From a virus (lineage: Duplodnaviria > Caudoviricetes): a DNA stretch of 61,715 nucleotides. A program made the translations under genes and the position numbers. Under the pieces are notes generated by a model. The model was not told the origin of the DNA. It saw only the letters and a program-made list of their open reading frames with translations, and did not search any database. The stretch's first letter is position 1; the number at the start of each line of letters is the position of its first letter. Positions 1 through 13,639 of this stretch are shown here, in pieces. The stretch is taken from IMG/VR virus record IMGVR_UViG_3300021961_007533, positions 1 through 61,715 of that record. One strand, given 5' to 3'.

Positions 1-76
1 TCAAAACTGAAGACAATTCTGAAAAACAGAAAAGTGATTTTATGTTAGTAATAAAACAAATATTAAATATATCATA

Positions 77-1435
77 ATGAGAGATAGTGAAATCAATAAA
101 ATTGTTAAAAAAATAATCAAAGAAGCACCAGTTGATTATGGCGACTATCCTGAAAGAATGCACCCAAGAAGTCAAGCAAAAATCGAAGATCCAGAGGGTA
201 TTTACGCAAAAAATAGAGGATTTAGAAAAGGTGTTGGGGACGTAGAAAGAATCGCAGGTAAACGATTTAAAGAAATTGTTGATTATGTTAAAAGATATTA
301 TGGGACAGATAGAAATATAACTGACCCCCAAGTAAAAATGTCAATACAAATGGCCCAAATGCAAGCAGTAAGACAAGTAATGCAAATTGAGCCAACTCAT
401 AGAGAATTACTAAGAGACCTGGCTGTTGAAATTGCAGCAAAAGAAGAGGGGTGGTTACCATATGCAAAAAGTATGGAACAGGCAATAGAAGACGGTTTAG
501 TTACTAAAGAAAAAAAACAAGGTGGCATCGAGTACCAATTTGATTTTATTAACATTTTAACTTTTCTTGGTGAAAAAAGAATTGACCCAAATATGTTTCA
601 GATGAAACCAAAAGAAATGAAAAAATTGGAGTTACCAAAAGATTTTTCTTTTGACATTGATGATTTAACACCAGAAGAAGAAAGACAATTAGAATTAGAA
701 AAAAGACACGTAATTAACGCACTTATACAAGGAAAGGGTAAGAGAGGGCAATTCGCATACCAAATGTATAAAGATCGATTAGACGAAATAGACCCAAGAT
801 TATACGATTTATATAACAAAATAATGGGTGCTAATGATTTAATGTATTTTACAGATGAAGATTTAATTGAAGCTCTTGGTGGAAATGCCGCCGGTGCCGC
901 CGGTAAAATGGAAGGTGGTGACGATAATGATGATGAAGAAGGTGGTGAAGAAGAAAACGACACATATTTTGCAAATGGTGTAATTTTCCCAATATTACTA
1001 CATGAACTATTTAAAGTATTTTCAGTACCAACGTCTCAAGCTCAATGGGATGATGTTGACCCAGGAATTGCGCAAGATGTTGTAGATAAAGCAGACTCAA
1101 TGGAGAATGAACCAATGAACTTTAGAGTTGGGGGTGAATTAGTTAGAAAATTAAGAACATTACTTCCAGATGATCTAGTTCTAGTACCTGAAAATAGAGT
1201 TTATATGCCATTCTTTGAGCAGGCACTATATTCAGTACCAGCTGAAGATTTCCTTAAAAATATTATAGCAAATGTTGTATCAGAAGATAAAGAAGATAAT
1301 AATAAAGCAAAAAGACGTTTTGAGGAACTTTACAAAAAGGCTAAAACTGAGTATGAAAAATACAAAGGTAATGGTGGTGACGATGATGAGTACGAAGATG
1401 ATGAAGATGATATTTTATCACAATTAGGGTTATAA
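77..1435 (+). CDS. Hypothetical phage protein (452 aa), probable head-associated protein with N-terminal IVKKIIKE leader
   Basis: Long ORF directly upstream of TerL; acidic C-terminus; leader motif shared with other small proteins in the window. Confidence 0.6.
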   Translation: MRDSEINKIVKKIIKEAPVDYGDYPERMHPRSQAKIEDPEGIYAKNRGFRKGVGDVERIAGKRFKEIVDYVKRYYGTDRNITDPQVKMSIQMAQMQAVRQVMQIEPTHRELLRDLAVEIAAKEEGWLPYAKSMEQAIEDGLVTKEKKQGGIEYQFDFINILTFLGEKRIDPNMFQMKPKEMKKLELPKDFSFDIDDLTPEEERQLELEKRHVINALIQGKGKRGQFAYQMYKDRLDEIDPRLYDLYNKIMGANDLMYFTDEDLIEALGGNAAGAAGKMEGGDDNDDEEGGEEENDTYFANGVIFPILLHELFKVFSVPTSQAQWDDVDPGIAQDVVDKADSMENEPMNFRVGGELVRKLRTLLPDDLVLVPENRVYMPFFEQALYSVPAEDFLKNIIANVVSEDKEDNNKAKRRFEELYKKAKTEYEKYKGNGGDDDEYEDDEDDILSQLGL

Positions 1436-1452
1436 ATAAAACCAACTAAACC

Positions 1453-1488
1453 AAAGAACCCCCTTTTATTTACTAATTGGGGGTTTTT
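1453..1488 (+). terminator. Rho-independent terminator-like hairpin
   Basis: AACCCCC...GGGGGTT stem (long loop) followed by TTT, right after the 77..1435 stop. Confidence 0.5.
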
Positions 1489-1490
1489 GA

Positions 1491-1498
1491 TATTTATA
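1491..1498 (+). promoter_or_regulatory. Putative phage late promoter motif TATTTATA (before terL)
   Basis: Same octamer recurs upstream of about 18 mostly structural genes. Confidence 0.6.
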
Positions 1499-1510
1499 TA
1501 AAAAGACTTT

Positions 1511-3286
1511 ATGGGTTTATCTAAAGAACAATTAATGTTAGAATATATAAAGTGTATGAAAGACACGTCATACGCTTTAAGAACATATTTACAGACATAT
1601 GACAATACAGTATCAAAATATGTCCCATTAGAGTTATTTCCAGATCAAGAAAATTTATTAAATGACTACGAGGAACATGAAGAAAATATTGCTTTAAAAT
1701 ATAGACAAGCTGGCGTATCAACAGTTACTGCTGCATGGGTATCAAAAAGACTTGTTTTTGCAAAAAAAGAAAGACCTGAAAAAATTCTAATTATTGCAAA
1801 TAAATTAGATACCTCTATGGAAATGGCAAATAAGATTAGAGCTTTTATAGAACAATGGCCTAATTGGGTTGGAGCACAATTTTCACCAGATAAAAATTCA
1901 CAAAGACATTATAAATTAACAAATGGTTGTGAGGTAAAAGCAGTTGCAACATCAAGGGACGCACTTAGAGGTTATACACCAACAATTCTTGTTTTTGATG
2001 AGGCCGCGTTTATTGAAGCTGACAATGATTTCTGGGCGGCTTGTATGGCATCGCTATCTACTGGGGGTAAAGTAATTGTTGTGTCAACACCAAATGGGTA
2101 TGACCCAATATATTATGAGATATATAATCAAGCGTCAAAGGGTATTAATAATTTTAAAATTACAGAGATGTTTTGGTGGAAAGACCCAAGATATACAAAA
2201 GATTTATATTTAGTACCAACAGAAGACATGATTGATTATCTACTTAATAAAACAGAAAGAGACCATAGTAAAAATATATCATATGAAGGTACTAATCCAT
2301 ATGAAAGGGATTATGATGAAATAAAAGAATATTTTAAACAAGGATATAAACCATGCTCATCTTGGTATGAAAAAATGGTTAAAAAACTTAAATACGATAA
2401 AAGAAAAATAAACCAAGAATTAAATTGTGAATTTTTAGGATCTGGTGATAACGTATTTGATAATAAACAATTAGAGTATATTAAAAATAACACACTAGTT
2501 GAGACTCAAACAAAAATGATGGGCAACTCCCTTTGGATATGGAAAGACCCACAAGAGGGTCATAAATATATTATGGGAATTGATGTTTCTAGGGGAGATA
2601 GTGAGGATTTCTCAACAATACAAATTATAGATTTTGACGAAAGAGAACAAGTGCTTGAGTACGTTGGAAAAATTCCACCAGACGCATTAGCTGAAATAGC
2701 ATATAAATGGGGGGTTATGTATAGTGCGTTTATTGTAATTGATATTACTGGTGGTATGGGTGTTGCGACATCAAGAAAACTACAAGAAATGGGGTATAAA
2801 AATCTATATATTGATGGTGTTGACTCAACAAATATATGGAACTACAATCCTAAAGCACAAGATAAGATACCAGGAATAAACTTTAATAATAAACGAGTTC
2901 AAATTATTGCGGCTTTTGAGGAATATGTTAGACACAAATTTAAAATTAAAAGTAGTCGTTTATACGATGAGATGAATAACTTTATTTATGTAAATGGTAG
3001 ACCCGATCACCAAAAAGGACAACATGACGATTTAATTATGGCAATAGCTATGGCTATATATGTAGGGGAAATCGCATTCCAAAAACTAGAAAAGGTAACC
3101 CAACAAACAAAAGTGATGCTTGAGTCATGGACTGTAAGTAATAACGAAAGTGTTAATAGGGATTTAGAGTTTAACCCAGTAATCCCAAATAATTATATGA
3201 TGAATGAAAAAAACAAAATAAACAATGTATCAAAAGATGACTATATAAAATATGGTTGGTTATTTGGTTCTAGTAAAAGATATTAA
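1511..3286 (+). CDS. terL: Terminase large subunit (T4 gp17-like)
   Basis: Walker A-like KYRQAGVST, Walker B LVFDEAAF, STPNG coupling motif, RNase H nuclease motifs GIDVSRG and HDDLIMA. Confidence 0.95.
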   Translation: MGLSKEQLMLEYIKCMKDTSYALRTYLQTYDNTVSKYVPLELFPDQENLLNDYEEHEENIALKYRQAGVSTVTAAWVSKRLVFAKKERPEKILIIANKLDTSMEMANKIRAFIEQWPNWVGAQFSPDKNSQRHYKLTNGCEVKAVATSRDALRGYTPTILVFDEAAFIEADNDFWAACMASLSTGGKVIVVSTPNGYDPIYYEIYNQASKGINNFKITEMFWWKDPRYTKDLYLVPTEDMIDYLLNKTERDHSKNISYEGTNPYERDYDEIKEYFKQGYKPCSSWYEKMVKKLKYDKRKINQELNCEFLGSGDNVFDNKQLEYIKNNTLVETQTKMMGNSLWIWKDPQEGHKYIMGIDVSRGDSEDFSTIQIIDFDEREQVLEYVGKIPPDALAEIAYKWGVMYSAFIVIDITGGMGVATSRKLQEMGYKNLYIDGVDSTNIWNYNPKAQDKIPGINFNNKRVQIIAAFEEYVRHKFKIKSSRLYDEMNNFIYVNGRPDHQKGQHDDLIMAIAMAIYVGEIAFQKLEKVTQQTKVMLESWTVSNNESVNRDLEFNPVIPNNYMMNEKNKINNVSKDDYIKYGWLFGSSKRY

Positions 3287-3287
3287 A

Positions 3288-3452
3288 ATGGGAAAAGAAC
3301 TTAGAAAGACATCGGGTAAAATAATAGGTGGGTCAACATTAATTGTCCCTGACCAACCAGTATATTCAGTTAAGGTATTTCCACCAACATTTAAATATAA
3401 ACAAAGTAATATTAAACAAGAAGTTAATTCAAGTAACTCTAAAAATGTTTAA
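3288..3452 (+). CDS. Small hypothetical protein (54 aa, MGKELRKTSG...)
   Basis: ATG 1 nt after the terL stop; fills the terL-portal gap; start re-called from the 3252 ORF. Confidence 0.5.
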   Translation: MGKELRKTSGKIIGGSTLIVPDQPVYSVKVFPPTFKYKQSNIKQEVNSSNSKNV

Positions 3453-3488
3453 TATTTATATTTAAAGTATATATACTAATTTTTAATT

Positions 3489-5267
3489 ATGGAAAATTTA
3501 AATAAAGATTTAACTGTTTGGCAAAGAATATCAAAGGCCTTTGGACCAAATTCATTATTAGGTCAGGACATCTCACCAAGCTACCGTTTTGACAAAAAAG
3601 AACTTTTAAGAACTAAAGATAGAAATGAGTATGAGAAAGAATTATTACAGTCACAACAGTCTCTTTATTTAGCGAATCAATGGCAAAAAATTGAGAGTAA
3701 TTTATATACTCAAGCAATATATTATGAACCAACTAGATTAGCGGCTTTCTATGATTATGAATCTATGGAGTTTACACCTGAAATATCAACAGCTCTTGAC
3801 ATATACGCGGAAGAATCTACAACACCAAATGAGAATGGTTATATATTACAAATTTATTCAGAATCAAAAAGAATAAAAGGTGTATTAGCCGATTTATTTA
3901 ATAATACATTAGATATTAACACAAACTTACAAATGTGGATTAGAAACACTTGTAAGTATGGTGACAACTTTGTTTATTTAAAACTAGACCCAGAAAAAGG
4001 AATCATTGGTTGCGTACAATTACCAAATATTGAGATTGAAAGGTTAGAAAGGGGAATGAAACCAAAAACCCCAAATAGTGAAGTAAACACAGATGAAAAA
4101 GGTGTAAGATTTTCTTGGAAAGAGAAAAATATGGAGTTTAACACATGGGAGGTTGCACACTTTAGACTCCTAGGTGATGATAGAAAACTACCCTATGGTA
4201 CATCAATGCTTGAAAAAGCAAGAAGGATTTGGAAACAATTAGTATTAGCTGAAGACGCTATGCTTATTTATCGTACATCAAGAGCACCAGAAAGAAGGGT
4301 ATTTAAAGTTTTTGTTGGTAATATGGACGACAAAGATGTTGAGCCATACGTACAAAGAGTTGCTAATAAATTTAAAAGGGATCAGATTGTTGATCAGAAA
4401 ACAGGAAATGTAGATTTACGATTTAATCAAATGGCTGTAGATCAAGATTATTTTATTCCAGTTAGAGATGCCGCGCAAACAATGCCAATTGAGACATTAC
4501 CTGGTGGTACTAACTTATCTGAAATTGCGGATATTGAATATATTCAGAAAAAACTTGTGACGGCATTAAGGATACCAAAAGCATACCTTGGTTTTGAGGA
4601 GCCTGTTGGTGATGGTAAAAACTTATCATTACTTGATATTCGTTTTGCTAGAACAATTAATAGAATACAGAAAAATATGTTATCTGAATTAAATAAGATA
4701 GCAATTATTCACTTATTTCTTTTAGGGTTTGAGGATGAGTTAAATAACTTTACTTTAGGGCTAACAAATCCATCAAAACAAGCAGATCTATTAATGGTCG
4801 ATATTTGGAAAGAGAAAGTTTTACTATATAAAGACCTAGTAACTGAAATTCCAAACTCATTAGCTCCAACATCATCAACTTGGGCTAAAAAACATATATT
4901 TGGTTTTTCAGATGAAGATATTAAATTAGACATACAACAACAAAGAATGGAAAGAGCTGTTTCTGCCGAGTTAGCAAATACAGCAACAATCATTACACAC
5001 ACTGGTTTATTTGATAATGTAGATAGATTGTACAAAACAGTAAGTGGAGCTACAGGGAGCGCACCAGCTGAAGGAGGAGGAGGTGCACCACCATCACCAG
5101 GTGCTGGAGGGCCTCCACCGCCACCAGGAGGAGGAGAAGTTGGTGGTCTTCCAGAAAGTAAAAATAATTTAGAAAATTTAATATTAGAAGACATAGATTA
5201 TAACCCATTTAATAATAATTCTTTGGGTGATATGGAGTCAACATTGGATAAATTGATAAATGGTTGA
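3489..5267 (+). CDS. Portal vertex protein (T4 gp20-like)
   Basis: gp20 motifs LAEDAMLIYRTSRAPERRVF, DYFIPVR, IETLPGG, DIEYIQKKL, DIRFARTI; Gly/Pro-rich C-terminal tail. Confidence 0.93.
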   Translation: MENLNKDLTVWQRISKAFGPNSLLGQDISPSYRFDKKELLRTKDRNEYEKELLQSQQSLYLANQWQKIESNLYTQAIYYEPTRLAAFYDYESMEFTPEISTALDIYAEESTTPNENGYILQIYSESKRIKGVLADLFNNTLDINTNLQMWIRNTCKYGDNFVYLKLDPEKGIIGCVQLPNIEIERLERGMKPKTPNSEVNTDEKGVRFSWKEKNMEFNTWEVAHFRLLGDDRKLPYGTSMLEKARRIWKQLVLAEDAMLIYRTSRAPERRVFKVFVGNMDDKDVEPYVQRVANKFKRDQIVDQKTGNVDLRFNQMAVDQDYFIPVRDAAQTMPIETLPGGTNLSEIADIEYIQKKLVTALRIPKAYLGFEEPVGDGKNLSLLDIRFARTINRIQKNMLSELNKIAIIHLFLLGFEDELNNFTLGLTNPSKQADLLMVDIWKEKVLLYKDLVTEIPNSLAPTSSTWAKKHIFGFSDEDIKLDIQQQRMERAVSAELANTATIITHTGLFDNVDRLYKTVSGATGSAPAEGGGGAPPSPGAGGPPPPPGGGEVGGLPESKNNLENLILEDIDYNPFNNNSLGDMESTLDKLING

Positions 5268-5288
5268 TATTTATTAAAAAACAAAAAA

Positions 5289-5996
5289 ATGGAATTTGGA
5301 TTAATTAAAAGTAAAATAGAAAAAAGACTATCTAGTTCTTATTTAAACGAGAGTCTTAAAAATGATTTATTCATATTTAACGAACTTGTTTTAAAAAACA
5401 AAGATGTTAGTAAATTATTTTCTTTATATAGTGATTTAGCAGAAAATAGAGGTTATGATAATTCTTTTGCAACTGAATTTATAAAAGAATCAGTTGATAG
5501 AATAAAAAAAATTAAACCAAGTAAAAAAGCTATAGATGAAATTAATATGTGGTTATCACATATTGACGTTAAAAATGAATATACTAATATTGATAATCTA
5601 GTATCTGAAAGATATGTTAGTGTTGAGGATAAATTAAAAAGTAAGGAAAGTATTTTAGAATCATTAAAACAAAAAAAGGTTACTTATGATGAAATTAAAA
5701 AATTACCAATTAGTGATATTGTAAATGTTGCTAATAGCACTATTAATTCACACTTAAACACATTAGGTGAATCAGAAAAAAAACAACTACAATCTATTTT
5801 AAAAGAAAGTGATGAAAAACTAAAATTAAAATATGAAATAATAAAAGAAGATGTTTTATCTAAATTAGAAAATCTAAAAAATGATTCTGATACTGAGGTT
5901 TTAGGTAGAATTAACGAGACCTTTGAGAAAATATCAGCAGAAGATTATAGTAAATTAAATTATTTTAAATTAAAGGAATTAAATAACAACTTATAA
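5289..5996 (+). CDS. Hypothetical protein (235 aa) in head module
   Basis: ORF with TATTTATT motif at 5268-5275. Confidence 0.65.
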   Translation: MEFGLIKSKIEKRLSSSYLNESLKNDLFIFNELVLKNKDVSKLFSLYSDLAENRGYDNSFATEFIKESVDRIKKIKPSKKAIDEINMWLSHIDVKNEYTNIDNLVSERYVSVEDKLKSKESILESLKQKKVTYDEIKKLPISDIVNVANSTINSHLNTLGESEKKQLQSILKESDEKLKLKYEIIKEDVLSKLENLKNDSDTEVLGRINETFEKISAEDYSKLNYFKLKELNNNL

Positions 5997-6173
5997 ATCT
6001 TTTATTTTTTGAACGTGTATTGCCCGTTGTTTTTGGGCGCGTCTTTTTACGGACTTTTTAATAAACTCAACCTTAGAGTTTATTTGTGAATTTTGCCTAG
6101 TCTTTATTACCTTACTTTTTAATTCTTTTATAGCACGTTCAATATTACTATTCTTTACTTTAACAATTAACAT
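5991..6173 (-). CDS. rpsU: Phage-encoded 30S ribosomal protein bS21
   Basis: 60-aa basic protein MLIVKVKNSNIERAIKELKSK...EFIKKSVKRR matching the bS21 pattern (NIxRALKxxKxK...FxKPSVxRR) with a Bacteroidota-type MLI start; antisense within the head cluster, as described for bS21 phages. Confidence 0.85.
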   Translation of the reverse strand: MLIVKVKNSNIERAIKELKSKVIKTRQNSQINSKVEFIKKSVKRRAQKQRAIHVQKIKDL

Positions 6174-6211: not shown

Positions 6212-6244
6212 CAAAATTATATAAACTTTTTAAAAATAAACAAA
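6212..6244 (-). promoter_or_regulatory. Bacteroidota-type housekeeping promoter upstream of bS21 (TTTG-N21-TAATTTTG)
   Basis: Minus strand TTTG (6244-6241), 21-nt spacer, TAATTTTG (6219-6212). Confidence 0.5.
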
Positions 6245-9867: not shown

Positions 9868-11670
9868 ATGGGAGCATTATTAGAATCAGGTCTTGTTGGT
9901 AACATTGGGTTGAAGCACCTTAAAGTTATCAAGGAAGACACAATTGAAAAGTGGAACAAATTAGGGTTCCTAGAAGGCCTTAGAGGTCATCTAAAAGAAA
10001 ACGTTGCACAGTTGTATGAGAACCAAGCGTCTCACCTAATCAACGAAGCAACATCAGAAGGGTCAAACGGAGCATTCGAAACCGTTGTATTCCCTATCGT
10101 GAGAAGAGTATTCTCTAAATTGTTGGCTAACGACATCGTATCAGTACAAGCTATGAACCTACCTATTGGTAAATTGTTCTACTTTGTACCTAAAATTCAA
10201 GGTTATAATGCAGGTGCTGCTAATCCTAACACTCACTTTGCACCTGTTGGAGCGCCTAATGGACCAACACTAGCTGACGCACAAGCGGCTTATGATGGAG
10301 TTAAAAACACATATGATAGATTCTACGAAGGAGCTGAACCAGCTCTAGAACCTGCAGGATTGTTCGATTATTCTAAAGGACAATACTCTGCTATTACATC
10401 AGACACAACTGTTGTATTTTGGCAAAATGGTGGTTTAAGACCAGATAGTAATAGCGACCAATACACAGGTACAACTAGAAAAATTATTATCCAACTTTGT
10501 GGATGGCAAAATGTACAAGGTGCTGGTAAATTAATTGGTCCTGATGGAAATGAAATTGATACTGAATCTTTCCTTTCTGATTTGACAATTACAGCAAATG
10601 ACTTTACGGCAGAAACAACACCTTGTAATGTTTCATCTGGACCTCTTTTATTTAGAGTTGTAACTCAAAAATATGGTAAAGGAATTGTTGAGTATGGTCA
10701 ACAAACTACACTTGGATTCCCAGCTAAAGGAAATGGAGGTTCATTCTACGATATTTGTGATGCAGAGGGATGTATCTACCTAGAAGTAGATCTTTCTTGT
10801 CCAGCATGTGCTGATTGCGGTGCAACAACGCTTGATGGTTACACTGGAGCAACAGTTACAGATTATGTATTTGATTCAGCGTTTACTGCTACTTGGAGAA
10901 GATACAAGAATCTTGAATTCGAAGATGAAATTGGTGAAGTATCATTTGATCTTGAGTCAGTTACTGTATCAGTTACAGAAAGAAAATTAAGAGCGCAGTG
11001 GTCTCCAGAACTTGCACAAGACGTTGCTGCATTCCACAACATTGATGCGGAAGCTGAGCTTACAGCGTTGTTGTCTGAGCAAGTTGCTGCTGAAATCGAT
11101 AGAGAAATCCTTCGTGACCTTCGTAAAGGGGCTGCTTGGAATCTACGTTGGGATTACAATGGATGGAGAAGATTGAATCTTACAACATCTTACACTCAAA
11201 AAGACTGGAACCAGACTTTGATTACTGCAATCAACCAGTTGTCTGCTCAAATCCACAAGTCTACACTTCGTGGTGGTGCTAACTGGATCGTAGTTTCTTC
11301 TGAGGTTTCTGCAATTTTTGATGATCTAGAATACTTCCACGTATCTAACGCTTCACCTGAGCAAGATCAGTATAATATGGGTATTGAAAGAGTTGGTACT
11401 CTTGCAGGACGTTACCAAGTTTATCGTGATCCTTACTTCCCACCAAACCAAGTGTTGATTGGACATAAAGGAACATCATTGTTAGACACAGGTTACATCT
11501 ACGCACCGTATGTACCTCTACAATTAACACCTACAATGTACAATCCATTCAACTTCACGCCTATCAAAGGTATTATGACTAGATACGCGAAGAAGATGGT
11601 AAATAACCGTTTCTATGGACGTATTACTGTAGATGGAGTTCGTACATTTGATTTACAAGAATTGAGATAA
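9868..11670 (+). CDS. Major capsid protein (T4 gp23-like) with a Cys-containing insertion
   Basis: gp23 motifs PIVRRVF, VSVQAMNLP, RKLRAQWSPELAQD, DAEAEL, EIDREI, YAPYVPL, P-GIMTRY. Confidence 0.96.
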   Translation: MGALLESGLVGNIGLKHLKVIKEDTIEKWNKLGFLEGLRGHLKENVAQLYENQASHLINEATSEGSNGAFETVVFPIVRRVFSKLLANDIVSVQAMNLPIGKLFYFVPKIQGYNAGAANPNTHFAPVGAPNGPTLADAQAAYDGVKNTYDRFYEGAEPALEPAGLFDYSKGQYSAITSDTTVVFWQNGGLRPDSNSDQYTGTTRKIIIQLCGWQNVQGAGKLIGPDGNEIDTESFLSDLTITANDFTAETTPCNVSSGPLLFRVVTQKYGKGIVEYGQQTTLGFPAKGNGGSFYDICDAEGCIYLEVDLSCPACADCGATTLDGYTGATVTDYVFDSAFTATWRRYKNLEFEDEIGEVSFDLESVTVSVTERKLRAQWSPELAQDVAAFHNIDAEAELTALLSEQVAAEIDREILRDLRKGAAWNLRWDYNGWRRLNLTTSYTQKDWNQTLITAINQLSAQIHKSTLRGGANWIVVSSEVSAIFDDLEYFHVSNASPEQDQYNMGIERVGTLAGRYQVYRDPYFPPNQVLIGHKGTSLLDTGYIYAPYVPLQLTPTMYNPFNFTPIKGIMTRYAKKMVNNRFYGRITVDGVRTFDLQELR

Positions 11671-12289: not shown

Positions 12290-12469
12290 GACTACCTCAA
12301 CTTCACCAATTGTAAATGCACCTCTTTTATGTGCCGCCTTTAGTGCCTCAACAATAAAGTAAGTTGCAGAATCTTTATCCATTGTGGTCAAAATTACATC
12401 CAAGTGATTTTCTGATAGTAAATCTATTGTTCCAAATAGATTGCCATATAGTTCTTTTTTTTCTTCCAT
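12254..12469 (-). CDS. Hypothetical protein (71 aa, MEEKKELYGNLF...)
   Basis: Start re-called to the ATG at 12469 to avoid overlap with the divergent gene. Confidence 0.55.
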   Translation of the reverse strand: MEEKKELYGNLFGTIDLLSENHLDVILTTMDKDSATYFIVEALKAAHKRGAFTIGEVEVVSKAIRSISRNE

Positions 12470-12485
12470 AATATATTTATATAAT

Positions 12486-13151
12486 ATGAATATTAGAAAT
12501 ATTGTAAAGAAAATATTACGTGAGGCCACATCGGACAGTGGTGGTAGAGGATCATATGTTGGCCCATTACAATATGGGATTAGAAGATTTAAAGATTCAC
12601 AAAATGGACCATTTACAATTAAAGTATCCAAATATGATTCACCTGAACTAGCGCATGATAGTTATGATGGTAAAATGGACACACCAAAAAGTAAGATAAA
12701 AAAAATTGAGAGTGAGGCAAAGAAGATAACAAAGTATATTACAGATCATCCAGATTTATTTACTAGTGATGAAGAAGGGAACGTTATAAATCAATTACCT
12801 GGTAAAAATTTAAAGATAGTTCCAATAGATGAGTGGGTTGAGATTACCCAAGATATTATTGCTGAAGATTTAGCAGTTTGGTTTGGTAAAAAGAAAAAAC
12901 CAAAAGGGTCTAAACAGCCAAAGGGTCCTTGGGTTGATATATGTAGAAAAGTAGATGGTAAACATCCTCCTTGTGGAAGAAAAGACGCGGATAAAGGTTC
13001 TTATCCTAAATGTAGAGCGGCTGGTGTTGCGGGTAAAATGACTGATGACGAAAAAAGAAACGCCTGTAGACAAAAAAGAGCTGTGGAAAGAAAAGATACA
13101 CAAACAGGAAAAGGGCAAAAACCTAATTGGGTTTCTTATAAAAAGAAATAA
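12486..13151 (+). CDS. Hypothetical protein with IVKKILRE leader and basic Cys/Trp-containing C-terminal domain
   Basis: Start re-called to 12486 (MNIRNIVKK); late motif at 12474-12481; C-terminal WVDIC...CGR...YPKCR. Confidence 0.7.
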   Translation: MNIRNIVKKILREATSDSGGRGSYVGPLQYGIRRFKDSQNGPFTIKVSKYDSPELAHDSYDGKMDTPKSKIKKIESEAKKITKYITDHPDLFTSDEEGNVINQLPGKNLKIVPIDEWVEITQDIIAEDLAVWFGKKKKPKGSKQPKGPWVDICRKVDGKHPPCGRKDADKGSYPKCRAAGVAGKMTDDEKRNACRQKRAVERKDTQTGKGQKPNWVSYKKK

Positions 13152-13268
13152 TTAATAGTATTTCTGATTTTTGTGTTTTTCCTTACGGGTATACTTCTTT
13201 CTATTACGATAAACATTTGGTCTCGTAGCCATTCTAATTTCTTCGTATGTAATTTCAATTGTTTTCAT
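13152..13268 (-). CDS. 38-aa basic peptide, ArfA (alternative ribosome rescue factor)-like
   Basis: Manual translation MKTIEITYEEIRMATRPNVYRNRKKYTRKEKHKNQKYY; starts 1 nt after the upstream stop; RxxVxxNxK...YxRKxKH pattern. Confidence 0.5.
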   Translation of the reverse strand: MKTIEITYEEIRMATRPNVYRNRKKYTRKEKHKNQKYY

Positions 13269-13269
13269 A

Positions 13270-13563
13270 TTAGTGTAGTCTAATAATATGTTGAATAATT
13301 CTATCGATATCCTCTTCCGTTTGGTAACCTAGTACATCACCAGTTAACTTTGTGTCATAACATATGTCCCATCCATTTTCATCACTCTTTAGAATCGCAA
13401 CTTCCCACTCATCATCATTTGATGTGTATGAAGAATATCGATTACTGCCAGGTATTTTAAATCTAACAATAGATAATCCATATCCACCAGGAAAAAAGAT
13501 TCTACCAAGTAATCCATCACCTACTGGGTGCGGCTTAAGTTCAATGTCTTTAAATGTTACCAT
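13270..13563 (-). CDS. Phage hypothetical protein (97 aa)
   Basis: ORF with GYGxSIV...EVAIL...YDTxLTxDVLGY pattern that I recognise from phage proteins; host-type promoter upstream. Confidence 0.7.
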   Translation of the reverse strand: MVTFKDIELKPHPVGDGLLGRIFFPGGYGLSIVRFKIPGSNRYSSYTSNDDEWEVAILKSDENGWDICYDTKLTGDVLGYQTEEDIDRIIQHIIRLH

Positions 13564-13567
13564 AACA

Positions 13568-13598
13568 CAAATATAAAAATATTATTTTAATTTACAAA
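13568..13598 (-). promoter_or_regulatory. Bacteroidota -33/-7 promoter (TTTG-N19-TATATTTG), near-leaderless transcript
   Basis: Exact match to TTTG-N19-21-TAnnTTTG; ATG lies 4 nt downstream. Confidence 0.7.
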
Positions 13599-13611: not shown

Positions 13612-13639
13612 AAAATCCCACCTAAAAAGATGGGATTTT
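13612..13639 (-). terminator. Intrinsic terminator (possibly bidirectional)
   Basis: AAAATCCCA...TGGGATTTT stem downstream of the 13661 stop. Confidence 0.7.

Follow-up and report, generated by a model that had tools for sequence, protein, structure and literature searches.

Among the described systems, those closest to the small phage gene reported here are ribosome-rescue peptides of the ArfA type. Demo et al. (PMC5378476) place ArfA residues His21-Glu30 in the A site and residues 31-48 in the mRNA tunnel, and describe the protein as active when cut at Asn47 and inactive when cut after Met40. In a review (PMC8012679), ArfA and BrfA are described as markedly similar only in the KH motif, which occupies a pocket of the mRNA entry channel. 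A survey of the FCB group is also at hand (PMC11633108), in which arfA was recorded in 0 of 1,956 genomes and arfB in 1,426 of 1,956. Translation genes have also been reported from huge phages, namely bS21, tmRNA, SmpB and RF1/2 (PMC7162821); the literature searched held no report of a phage-encoded ArfA-type factor.

The window, that is, the whole 61.7-kb stretch of DNA analysed, is an IMG/VR virus record with a CheckV completeness of 21%, and is therefore a piece of a roughly 290-kb phage. An un-called 38-aa ORF had been proposed on its minus strand at 13152..13268; the ORF is present there with exactly the residues quoted, and with its 71 homologs and its codon-position pattern it is almost certainly a real phage gene. 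The product consists of a conserved N-terminal part (residues 1-17) and a basic tail (residues 21-36; NxKK-YxRKxKH). We tentatively regard it as belonging to a new phage-borne family of minimal (~38 aa) A-site/mRNA-channel peptides, ArfA-related or convergent, that would rescue or commandeer stalled host ribosomes; the family is widespread among the phages of Bacteroidota, from which no ArfA is known.

The peptide gene and its genomic setting

The features of the window that bear on the peptide gene are the following.

13152..13268, minus strand: 38-aa peptide gene, ATG to TAA, stop codon included
13270..13563, minus strand: 97-aa ORF upstream of the peptide gene, function not assigned (phrog_4074, E 7.6e-11)
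13568..13598, minus strand: promoter-like TTTG-N19-TAtaTTTG of the Bacteroidetes type, a pattern match ending 4 nt before the ATG (at 13563) of the 97-aa ORF
13612..13639, minus strand: terminator-like hairpin, 12-bp stem then U-run (-16.9 kcal/mol, z -4.14, a stability reached by none of 200 shuffles)
1511-3286, plus strand: terminase, head module
3489-5267, plus strand: portal, head module
9868-11670, plus strand: major head protein, head module
6015-6164, minus strand: bS21 gene (30.4 bits against a Pfam cut-off of 27)

Between the TAA of the 97-aa ORF (13270-13272) and the ATG of the peptide gene (at 13268) lies a single base (13269), the spacing given in the original prediction, and the two genes are probably co-transcribed and translationally coupled. 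The consensus for Bacteroidetes promoters is TTTG-N19-TAnnTTTG. The host-type promoter that had been claimed upstream exists as a match to this pattern (13598..13568), but the pattern is not enriched across the window, where 7 matches stand against 4.5 expected and at least 7 occurred in 20 of 100 shuffles; a sigma-70 promoter scan was not above shuffles either (19 found, 19.1 expected). Despite the lack of enrichment, the position of the promoter-like site is apt, directly after the terminator-like hairpin. Since the hairpin closes the upstream unit and the promoter-like site follows it at 4 nt from the ATG, the 97-aa and peptide genes seem to make up a unit of their own, and the same 4-nt distance suggests that a transcript from this site would be leaderless or nearly so. 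The unit converges, on the minus strand, on the plus-strand head module of terminase, portal and major head protein. A convergent 236-aa ORF (12441-13151, plus strand) adjoins the stop codon of the peptide gene with its last base; its C-terminal domain is cysteine-rich and very basic, and its PHROG matches are weak, with no function assigned (phrog_727, E 1.6e-6).

The bS21 gene stands in the middle of the head module on the strand opposite to the head genes, and a match to the promoter pattern (TTTG-N-TAnnTTTG) lies just upstream of it (6244..6212, minus strand). Peptide and bS21 had been proposed to form a two-part kit for translation control; the window does hold both, but the association is loose, as only two of the five large phage records carrying the peptide have bS21. 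In the closest complete relative (L145, handle G385; 97% complete, 290,710 bases in IMG/VR), the peptide gene shares its strand with 14 tRNA genes that surround it within 6.1 kb (1-6099), a full-length tmRNA (114 bits) is found at 285075-285465, and bS21 is also present. This relative also has homologs of the 165-aa and 97-aa genes of the window close by, the latter 1.7 kb from the peptide gene, and at a further locus (L151) a homolog of the 97-aa gene with 62% identity sits beside the peptide gene and overlaps its start. A tRNA-array context was found at only 2 of the 50 phage loci, the second one being syntenic with 6 tRNAs and the other 48 having none.

Taken as a whole, the genomic context is suggestive. 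A small third RF-1-domain (ArfB-like) gene was found in only 2 of 11 peptide-bearing Bacteroidota genomes, against at least three RF-1-domain matches in 49 of 80 genomes of a random Bacteroidia sample; the scarcity of the gene in peptide carriers is a weak phyletic hint, in a comparison that is not independent (a single Bacteroidales clade supplies 6 of the 11 genomes, and MAGs make up most of the set). None of the five large peptide-bearing phage records contains an RF-1-domain gene of its own, so that any release factor involved would be that of the host.

Conservation and distribution of the family

The possibility that the ORF arose by chance has two observations in its favor: short ORFs are frequent in this AT-rich DNA (39 of at least 25 aa within 4 kb, so that one of 38 aa is by itself within chance expectation), and a Shine-Dalgarno sequence is absent. 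The case for a genuine gene therefore comes from conservation and not from ORF length. A phmmer search of 1.84 billion representative proteins returned 71 homologs at E ≤ 1e-3, four of them at ≤ 1e-10. The family alignment (A1; 60 sequences) includes the window peptide and 59 of these homologs; the remaining 12 (P0021, P0032-34, P0037, P0038, P0042, P0046, P0054, P0061, P0065 and P0071), in which the motif is lost part-way or the N-terminus is missing, were left out. In this alignment the tail is conserved at Y26 (60/60), R28 (60/60), K29 (59/60), K31 (57/60) and H32 (50/60), and the N-terminal part at T7 (56/60), E10 (58/60), A14 (55/60) and P17 (56/60), with T7, E10, A14, R16, P17, N22, K24, K25, K29 and K31 each reaching at least 90%.

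Nucleotide comparison of 12 close free-standing copies, the window included (66 pairs), gave 489, 299 and 1037 differences at codon positions 1, 2 and 3, and the amino-acid identity of the same copies is 0.76 in the peptide frame and drops to 0.41 and 0.39 in the two alternative frames. The peptide gene is under purifying selection. Conservation in related phages, which the original prediction had put forward as a check, was found: relatives are encoded at 50 IMG/VR loci, and at 47 of them the ORF is clean, with start and stop conserved (the exceptions, as scored by script, are L147, L154 and L183). The 47 phage copies are 36-49 aa long (median 39), end 3-13 residues (median 6) past the KH position, and carry H at that position in 45 cases. 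In Flavobacterium phage immuto (vB_FspM_immuto), the only cultured carrier found, the homolog (locus tag immuto26A_124) is annotated as a CDS for a hypothetical protein. A chance ORF is refuted by the 71 representative homologs, by the start and stop kept in 47 phage loci and by the codon pattern, in which third-position variation dominates and the alternative frames are without conservation; together with the annotated CDS in phage immuto, these results make it very improbable.

The peptide gene is new to annotation. No source gave a family name or a Pfam domain for it, and its 160 clusters are all labeled 'hypothetical protein' or unnamed. The nearest clusters of a protein atlas comprise unnamed 37-43-aa proteins, with one cluster being 30% DUF7230, and NCBIfam returned nothing for the peptide or three neighbours. 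Among cultured phages, blastn with 2 kb around the peptide gene gave no match, and neither did tblastn with two other subfamily peptides, a search in which the BLAST low-complexity filter may hide them. Whatever its function, the gene represents a large, well-conserved family that is missed by standard ORF calling and unnamed in databases.

The family is chiefly a phage gene, found mainly in phages of Bacteroidota. Matches occurred in only 2 of 151 evenly sampled Bacteroidia genomes, and a scan of 185,579 species genomes yielded 24 loci, many on short MAG contigs. Genuine chromosomal copies were found in a Bacteroidales clade, as a ~60-aa form whose locus is constant, close to gyrA and flanked by YtfJ-like and DUF2461 genes. 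In the MAGs of this clade (L019, L020, L022 and L024-L026; about 3900-4090 in each) the core TRPxxYxNxKKYxRK is kept, and a 25-residue basic N-terminal extension precedes it in the ~60-aa form. Flavobacterium aciduliphilum DSM 25663 carries a 38-aa cellular copy (L013, 4001-4117) flanked by a SIR2-family gene on one side and by unknown or SLOG/DprA-like genes on the other, surroundings reminiscent of a defence island; only two RF-1-domain genes were found in this genome, and thus no ArfB. A 61-aa variant from a Porphyromonadaceae MAG (L021, 1741-1926), with the tail ...VERNRKKYTRKTKHK, is closer to ArfA around its V-E-x-N-x-K stretch than the phage peptides are, and may be a bridging form.

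The peptide ORF is overprinted in full at 15 of the 47 phage loci, where a longer ORF of 378-430 aa on the same strand contains it in another frame.

L174-L177, L180-L182, L184, L186-L188 and L190-L193: overprinted loci, peptide ORF near 3001-3117 of each

The host ORF of the overprinted peptide follows an 811-aa portal gene (phrog_6547) in L180. Of the three frames, that of the peptide is conserved best among the overprinted copies, at an identity of 0.72 compared with 0.54 and 0.50, and 619, 457 and 909 differences fall on its codon positions 1, 2 and 3. Selection would then have been strong enough for one phage lineage to keep the peptide overprinted and out of frame, a point that we advance tentatively as part of the joint new-family interpretation. 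The overprinting gives a clear-cut example of a structural gene that harbors a small one.

Resemblance of the tail to ArfA

The ORF had been described as ArfA-like by comparison with the E. coli ArfA core, and the core sequence quoted there agrees with the PDB and with the ArfA sequences collected here. When the family profile was compared with 177,635 distinct PDB sequences, the best four matches were all ArfA (E 0.038, 0.099, 0.17 and 0.17), followed by a designed coiled coil; neither a ribosomal protein nor another basic peptide appeared at E ≤ 10. The ArfA reference set comprised 24 diverse genes identified with the Pfam model from 28 of 101 genomes of one order; earlier collections had held almost only close relatives (1 of 81 genomes; 1 protein; enterobacterial sets only). 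Four of the 28 ArfA ORFs were dropped, L129, L138 and L141 as near-duplicates and L135 as truncated, and L142 gave no ORF.

Aligned by hhalign, the family (60 sequences) and the 24 ArfA scored 20.4 (P 0.0045) at a probability of only 7.7%, with peptide residues 16-36 placed onto ArfA 26-49, 10 identities and a 3-residue gap opposite G35-K36-G37. Because composition alone could yield such a match, the columns of the ArfA alignment were shuffled: none of 300 shuffled alignments reached the real score of 19.2 (mean 8.8, sd 2.0, maximum 16.6), nor did any of 300 reach the real 16.6 when only the basic-tail columns were shuffled (mean 7.8, maximum 15.7). In these alignments the tail is shown to resemble the A-site/tunnel segment of ArfA beyond composition and in an order-specific manner. 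The statistics of the match are marginal. It spans ~20 residues of a lysine-rich segment, so that convergence or a generic RNA-binding motif is possible.

The basic tunnel segment of ArfA, Y39-x-R41-K42-x-K44-H45, is present in the peptide family, with ArfA K44-H45 mapped by hhalign to peptide K31-H32. Asn47 of ArfA maps to N34, and the phage peptides thus end where active ArfA can end. K34, G35, K36 and G37 of the KGKGS loop are invariant in the 24 diverse ArfA, whereas in the peptide family GKG is absent and a 3-residue deletion is found instead. No N-terminal similarity was detected by hhalign between residues 1-16 and ArfA 1-26 (score 6.0, matched by 50 of 200 shuffles). The Pfam ArfA model (PF03889, gathering score 25.5 bits) gave no match to the window peptide at E ≤ 10 and matched 0 of 60 family members, while the control search matched 24 of 24 true ArfA. 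In the reciprocal check, the second Pfam family of an Escherichia-type ArfA, one of the 24, was DUF7230 (E 0.11).

Ahead of the stop codon, neither the window nor the 47 phage loci show a consistent hairpin, and the local hairpins of the window are weak (z -1.3). With the stop 3-13 residues past KH, the hallmark of non-stop regulation in ArfA and BrfA is therefore missing; ArfT is also without non-stop regulation, so that the missing hairpin does not exclude the functional class. Found here are the features of this class of release-factor-dependent rescue peptides (ArfA, BrfA, ArfT): a size of ~40-60 aa, a basic tail at the C-terminus that is unstructured and as long as the tunnel, and, apart from it, a conserved N-terminal portion. 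The AF2 model (pLDDT 83, pTM 0.32) shows a single short helix at residues 8-15, with the basic tail extended; the peptide is without a globular fold, and the predicted shape fits folding on a partner. A complex prediction with Flavobacterium RF2 (28-row alignment), run without controls, gave ipSAE values of 0.00 and 0.02 and counts neither for nor against an interaction.

As judged from its sequence, the family is not a member of ArfA: a model match, the KGKGS loop, the RF2-binding region and non-stop regulation are all missing. The ArfA likeness asserted in the original prediction stands for the tail including YxRKxKH, through the PDB ranking, hhalign and the shuffles, and falls for family membership, for which the model search, the missing GKG and the dissimilar N-terminus speak against it. 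The profile check that had been suggested divided in the same way, with ArfA as the best four PDB matches of the family profile and none of the 60 members recognized by the Pfam ArfA model. In its mode of action the peptide is probably comparable to the sensor half of ArfA, without itself being ArfA.

Possible functions and relation to known systems

A release-factor-dependent rescue of stalled ribosomes by an ArfA-like sensor peptide is the function we favor, as a tentative proposal. The tail (~16-36: RPxVY-RN-KKK-YxRKxKH-KN) would enter the empty A site as well as the entry channel for mRNA of a host ribosome that had stalled on reaching the end of a broken mRNA, analogous to ArfA residues 26-48. 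At the decoding centre, the well-conserved N-terminal 15-17 residues (with T7, E10, A14, R16 and P17) would bring in a release factor of the host, and this factor would detach the nascent chain. The pool for phage messages could thus regain ribosomes that had stalled on mRNA damage induced by the phage or by defence. We infer that the peptide binds ribosomes and hold its placement in the mRNA channel to be evenly balanced, while recruitment of a release factor is speculative. Several results weigh against the rescue function, namely the marginal PDB E value (0.038) and hhalign probability (7.7%), the 0 of 60 matches to Pfam ArfA with nothing from NCBIfam and GKG missing, and an N-terminus in which nothing resembles the region of ArfA that binds RF2. 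The missing non-stop regulation, with no hairpin ahead of the stop, also counts against it (ArfT being without such regulation too), as do the tRNA array in only 2 of 50 loci and bS21 in two of five large records. In addition, the 15 of 47 copies inside a head-module gene and the abutment of the window copy on the head module would also suit a virion- or DNA-associated peptide.

If the tail binds the entry channel but recruits no release factor, the peptide would act as a plug on vacant or stalled ribosomes, blocking mRNA loading, tmRNA-SmpB or ArfB, with host shut-off, a hibernation-like parking or control of rescue as the outcome. This is unlikely in our assessment, although the evidence from the tail (PDB, hhalign and shuffles) bears on it as much as on rescue and the lack of detectable similarity to the RF2-binding N-terminus of ArfA speaks for it. 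Coronavirus Nsp1, in which the residues of a KH motif plug the channel, is a known viral plug of the mRNA entry channel. A plug alone would be at odds with the 17 N-terminal residues, whose conservation is as good as that of the tail and argues for a second specific partner, and with the chromosomal copies at a fixed Bacteroidales locus, which suggest a function that the cell tolerates or uses. A different role altogether would be that of a non-ribosomal nucleic-acid binder acting on phage DNA or RNA, for instance an RNA chaperone, or a peptide that is packaged or has a condensing role, with the likeness to ArfA a matter of lysine-rich convergence. The gene does abut the head module in the window, is embedded in the ORF after the portal gene at 15 of 47 phage loci, and has an ArfA similarity that is short and marginal. 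A generic condensing peptide, however, needs neither the invariant Y26 and R28 (60/60) nor a conserved non-basic N-terminus; none of the 300 shuffles of the basic columns attains the order-specific score, the best PDB matches are ArfA and not DNA-binding peptides, and the gene has its own host-type promoter (as a pattern match) on the strand opposite the head genes. We consider nucleic-acid binding away from the ribosome improbable.

It is doubtful, although possible, that the peptide is a small regulator or an anti-defence peptide directed at some other host protein or RNA. Such roles are frequent for small, widespread phage genes, none of the 160 clusters is named, and the Flavobacterium aciduliphilum copy lies in its defence-island-like position between SIR2 and SLOG-like genes. 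There is no positive pointer to a particular target, however, and a regulator of this kind would leave unexplained the ArfA-specific match of the tail and the tRNA/tmRNA neighbourhood in the closest complete relative. Rescue by an ArfA-like sensor peptide would have wider consequences: were the peptide to act on ribosomes, viruses, and likewise Bacteroidota, would have their first ArfA-type factor, and phages would tune ribosome rescue besides initiation (bS21) and decoding (tRNAs). The bacterial mRNA channel, which has already been considered as an antibiotic target, would also gain a natural ligand of 38 residues.

Of the Pfam families, DUF7230 (PF23876) comes closest; it matches the window peptide over residues 16-37 (E 7e-5) and 53 of the 60 family members at E ≤ 10 (best 4.2e-6). 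The window score of 23.3 bits (22.2 on DNA) does not reach the gathering cut-off of 27 bits, and the alignment is confined to the tail half; by these profile scores the peptide family is a sister group of DUF7230 and not a member. PHROG 18092, 6310, 1359 and 2701 gave weak matches and, with DUF7230, form collinear models of ~39-46 positions without an assigned function; the literature searched made no mention of DUF7230. ArfT of Francisella, at 40 aa with a basic C-terminal tail, is comparable in size and layout and is described as not regulated via non-stop mRNA in PMC6299226, but its tail motif is of the KKGGS type, unlike that of the phage peptide, and Burroughs and Aravind (PMC6514570) place it in a different, repeat-forming family. 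BrfA of Bacillus has only the KH motif in common with ArfA (PMC8012679), and its PDB chain was not among the family-profile matches at E ≤ 10. The phage-borne translation genes known from huge phages have their counterparts here in bS21 in the window and in the 290-kb relative's tmRNA, its bS21 and the tRNA array around its peptide gene, whereas the release factors of huge phages have none in the five large peptide-bearing records (0/5).

With ArfA (PF03889; E. coli YhdL) the differences lie in range, size and N-terminus. ArfA is confined to Gamma- and Betaproteobacteria and some Bacillus (PMC11633108), and the phage family occurs in phages of Bacteroidota; mature ArfA measures 52-55 aa (PMC6299226), against 36-49 aa. 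The phage N-terminus is 10 residues shorter and unrelated to that of ArfA, whose hydrophobic N-terminal to middle region (aa 15-31) binds RF2, and the phage form is without hairpin or non-stop mRNA control and without the dispensable, hydrophobic C-terminal extension. Like ArfA, the phage peptide is small and unfolded; its residues 16-36 share with ArfA 26-49 the pattern R..V..N.KK...Y.RK.KH.N together with the KH motif, and its natural C-terminus lies where truncated, active ArfA ends.
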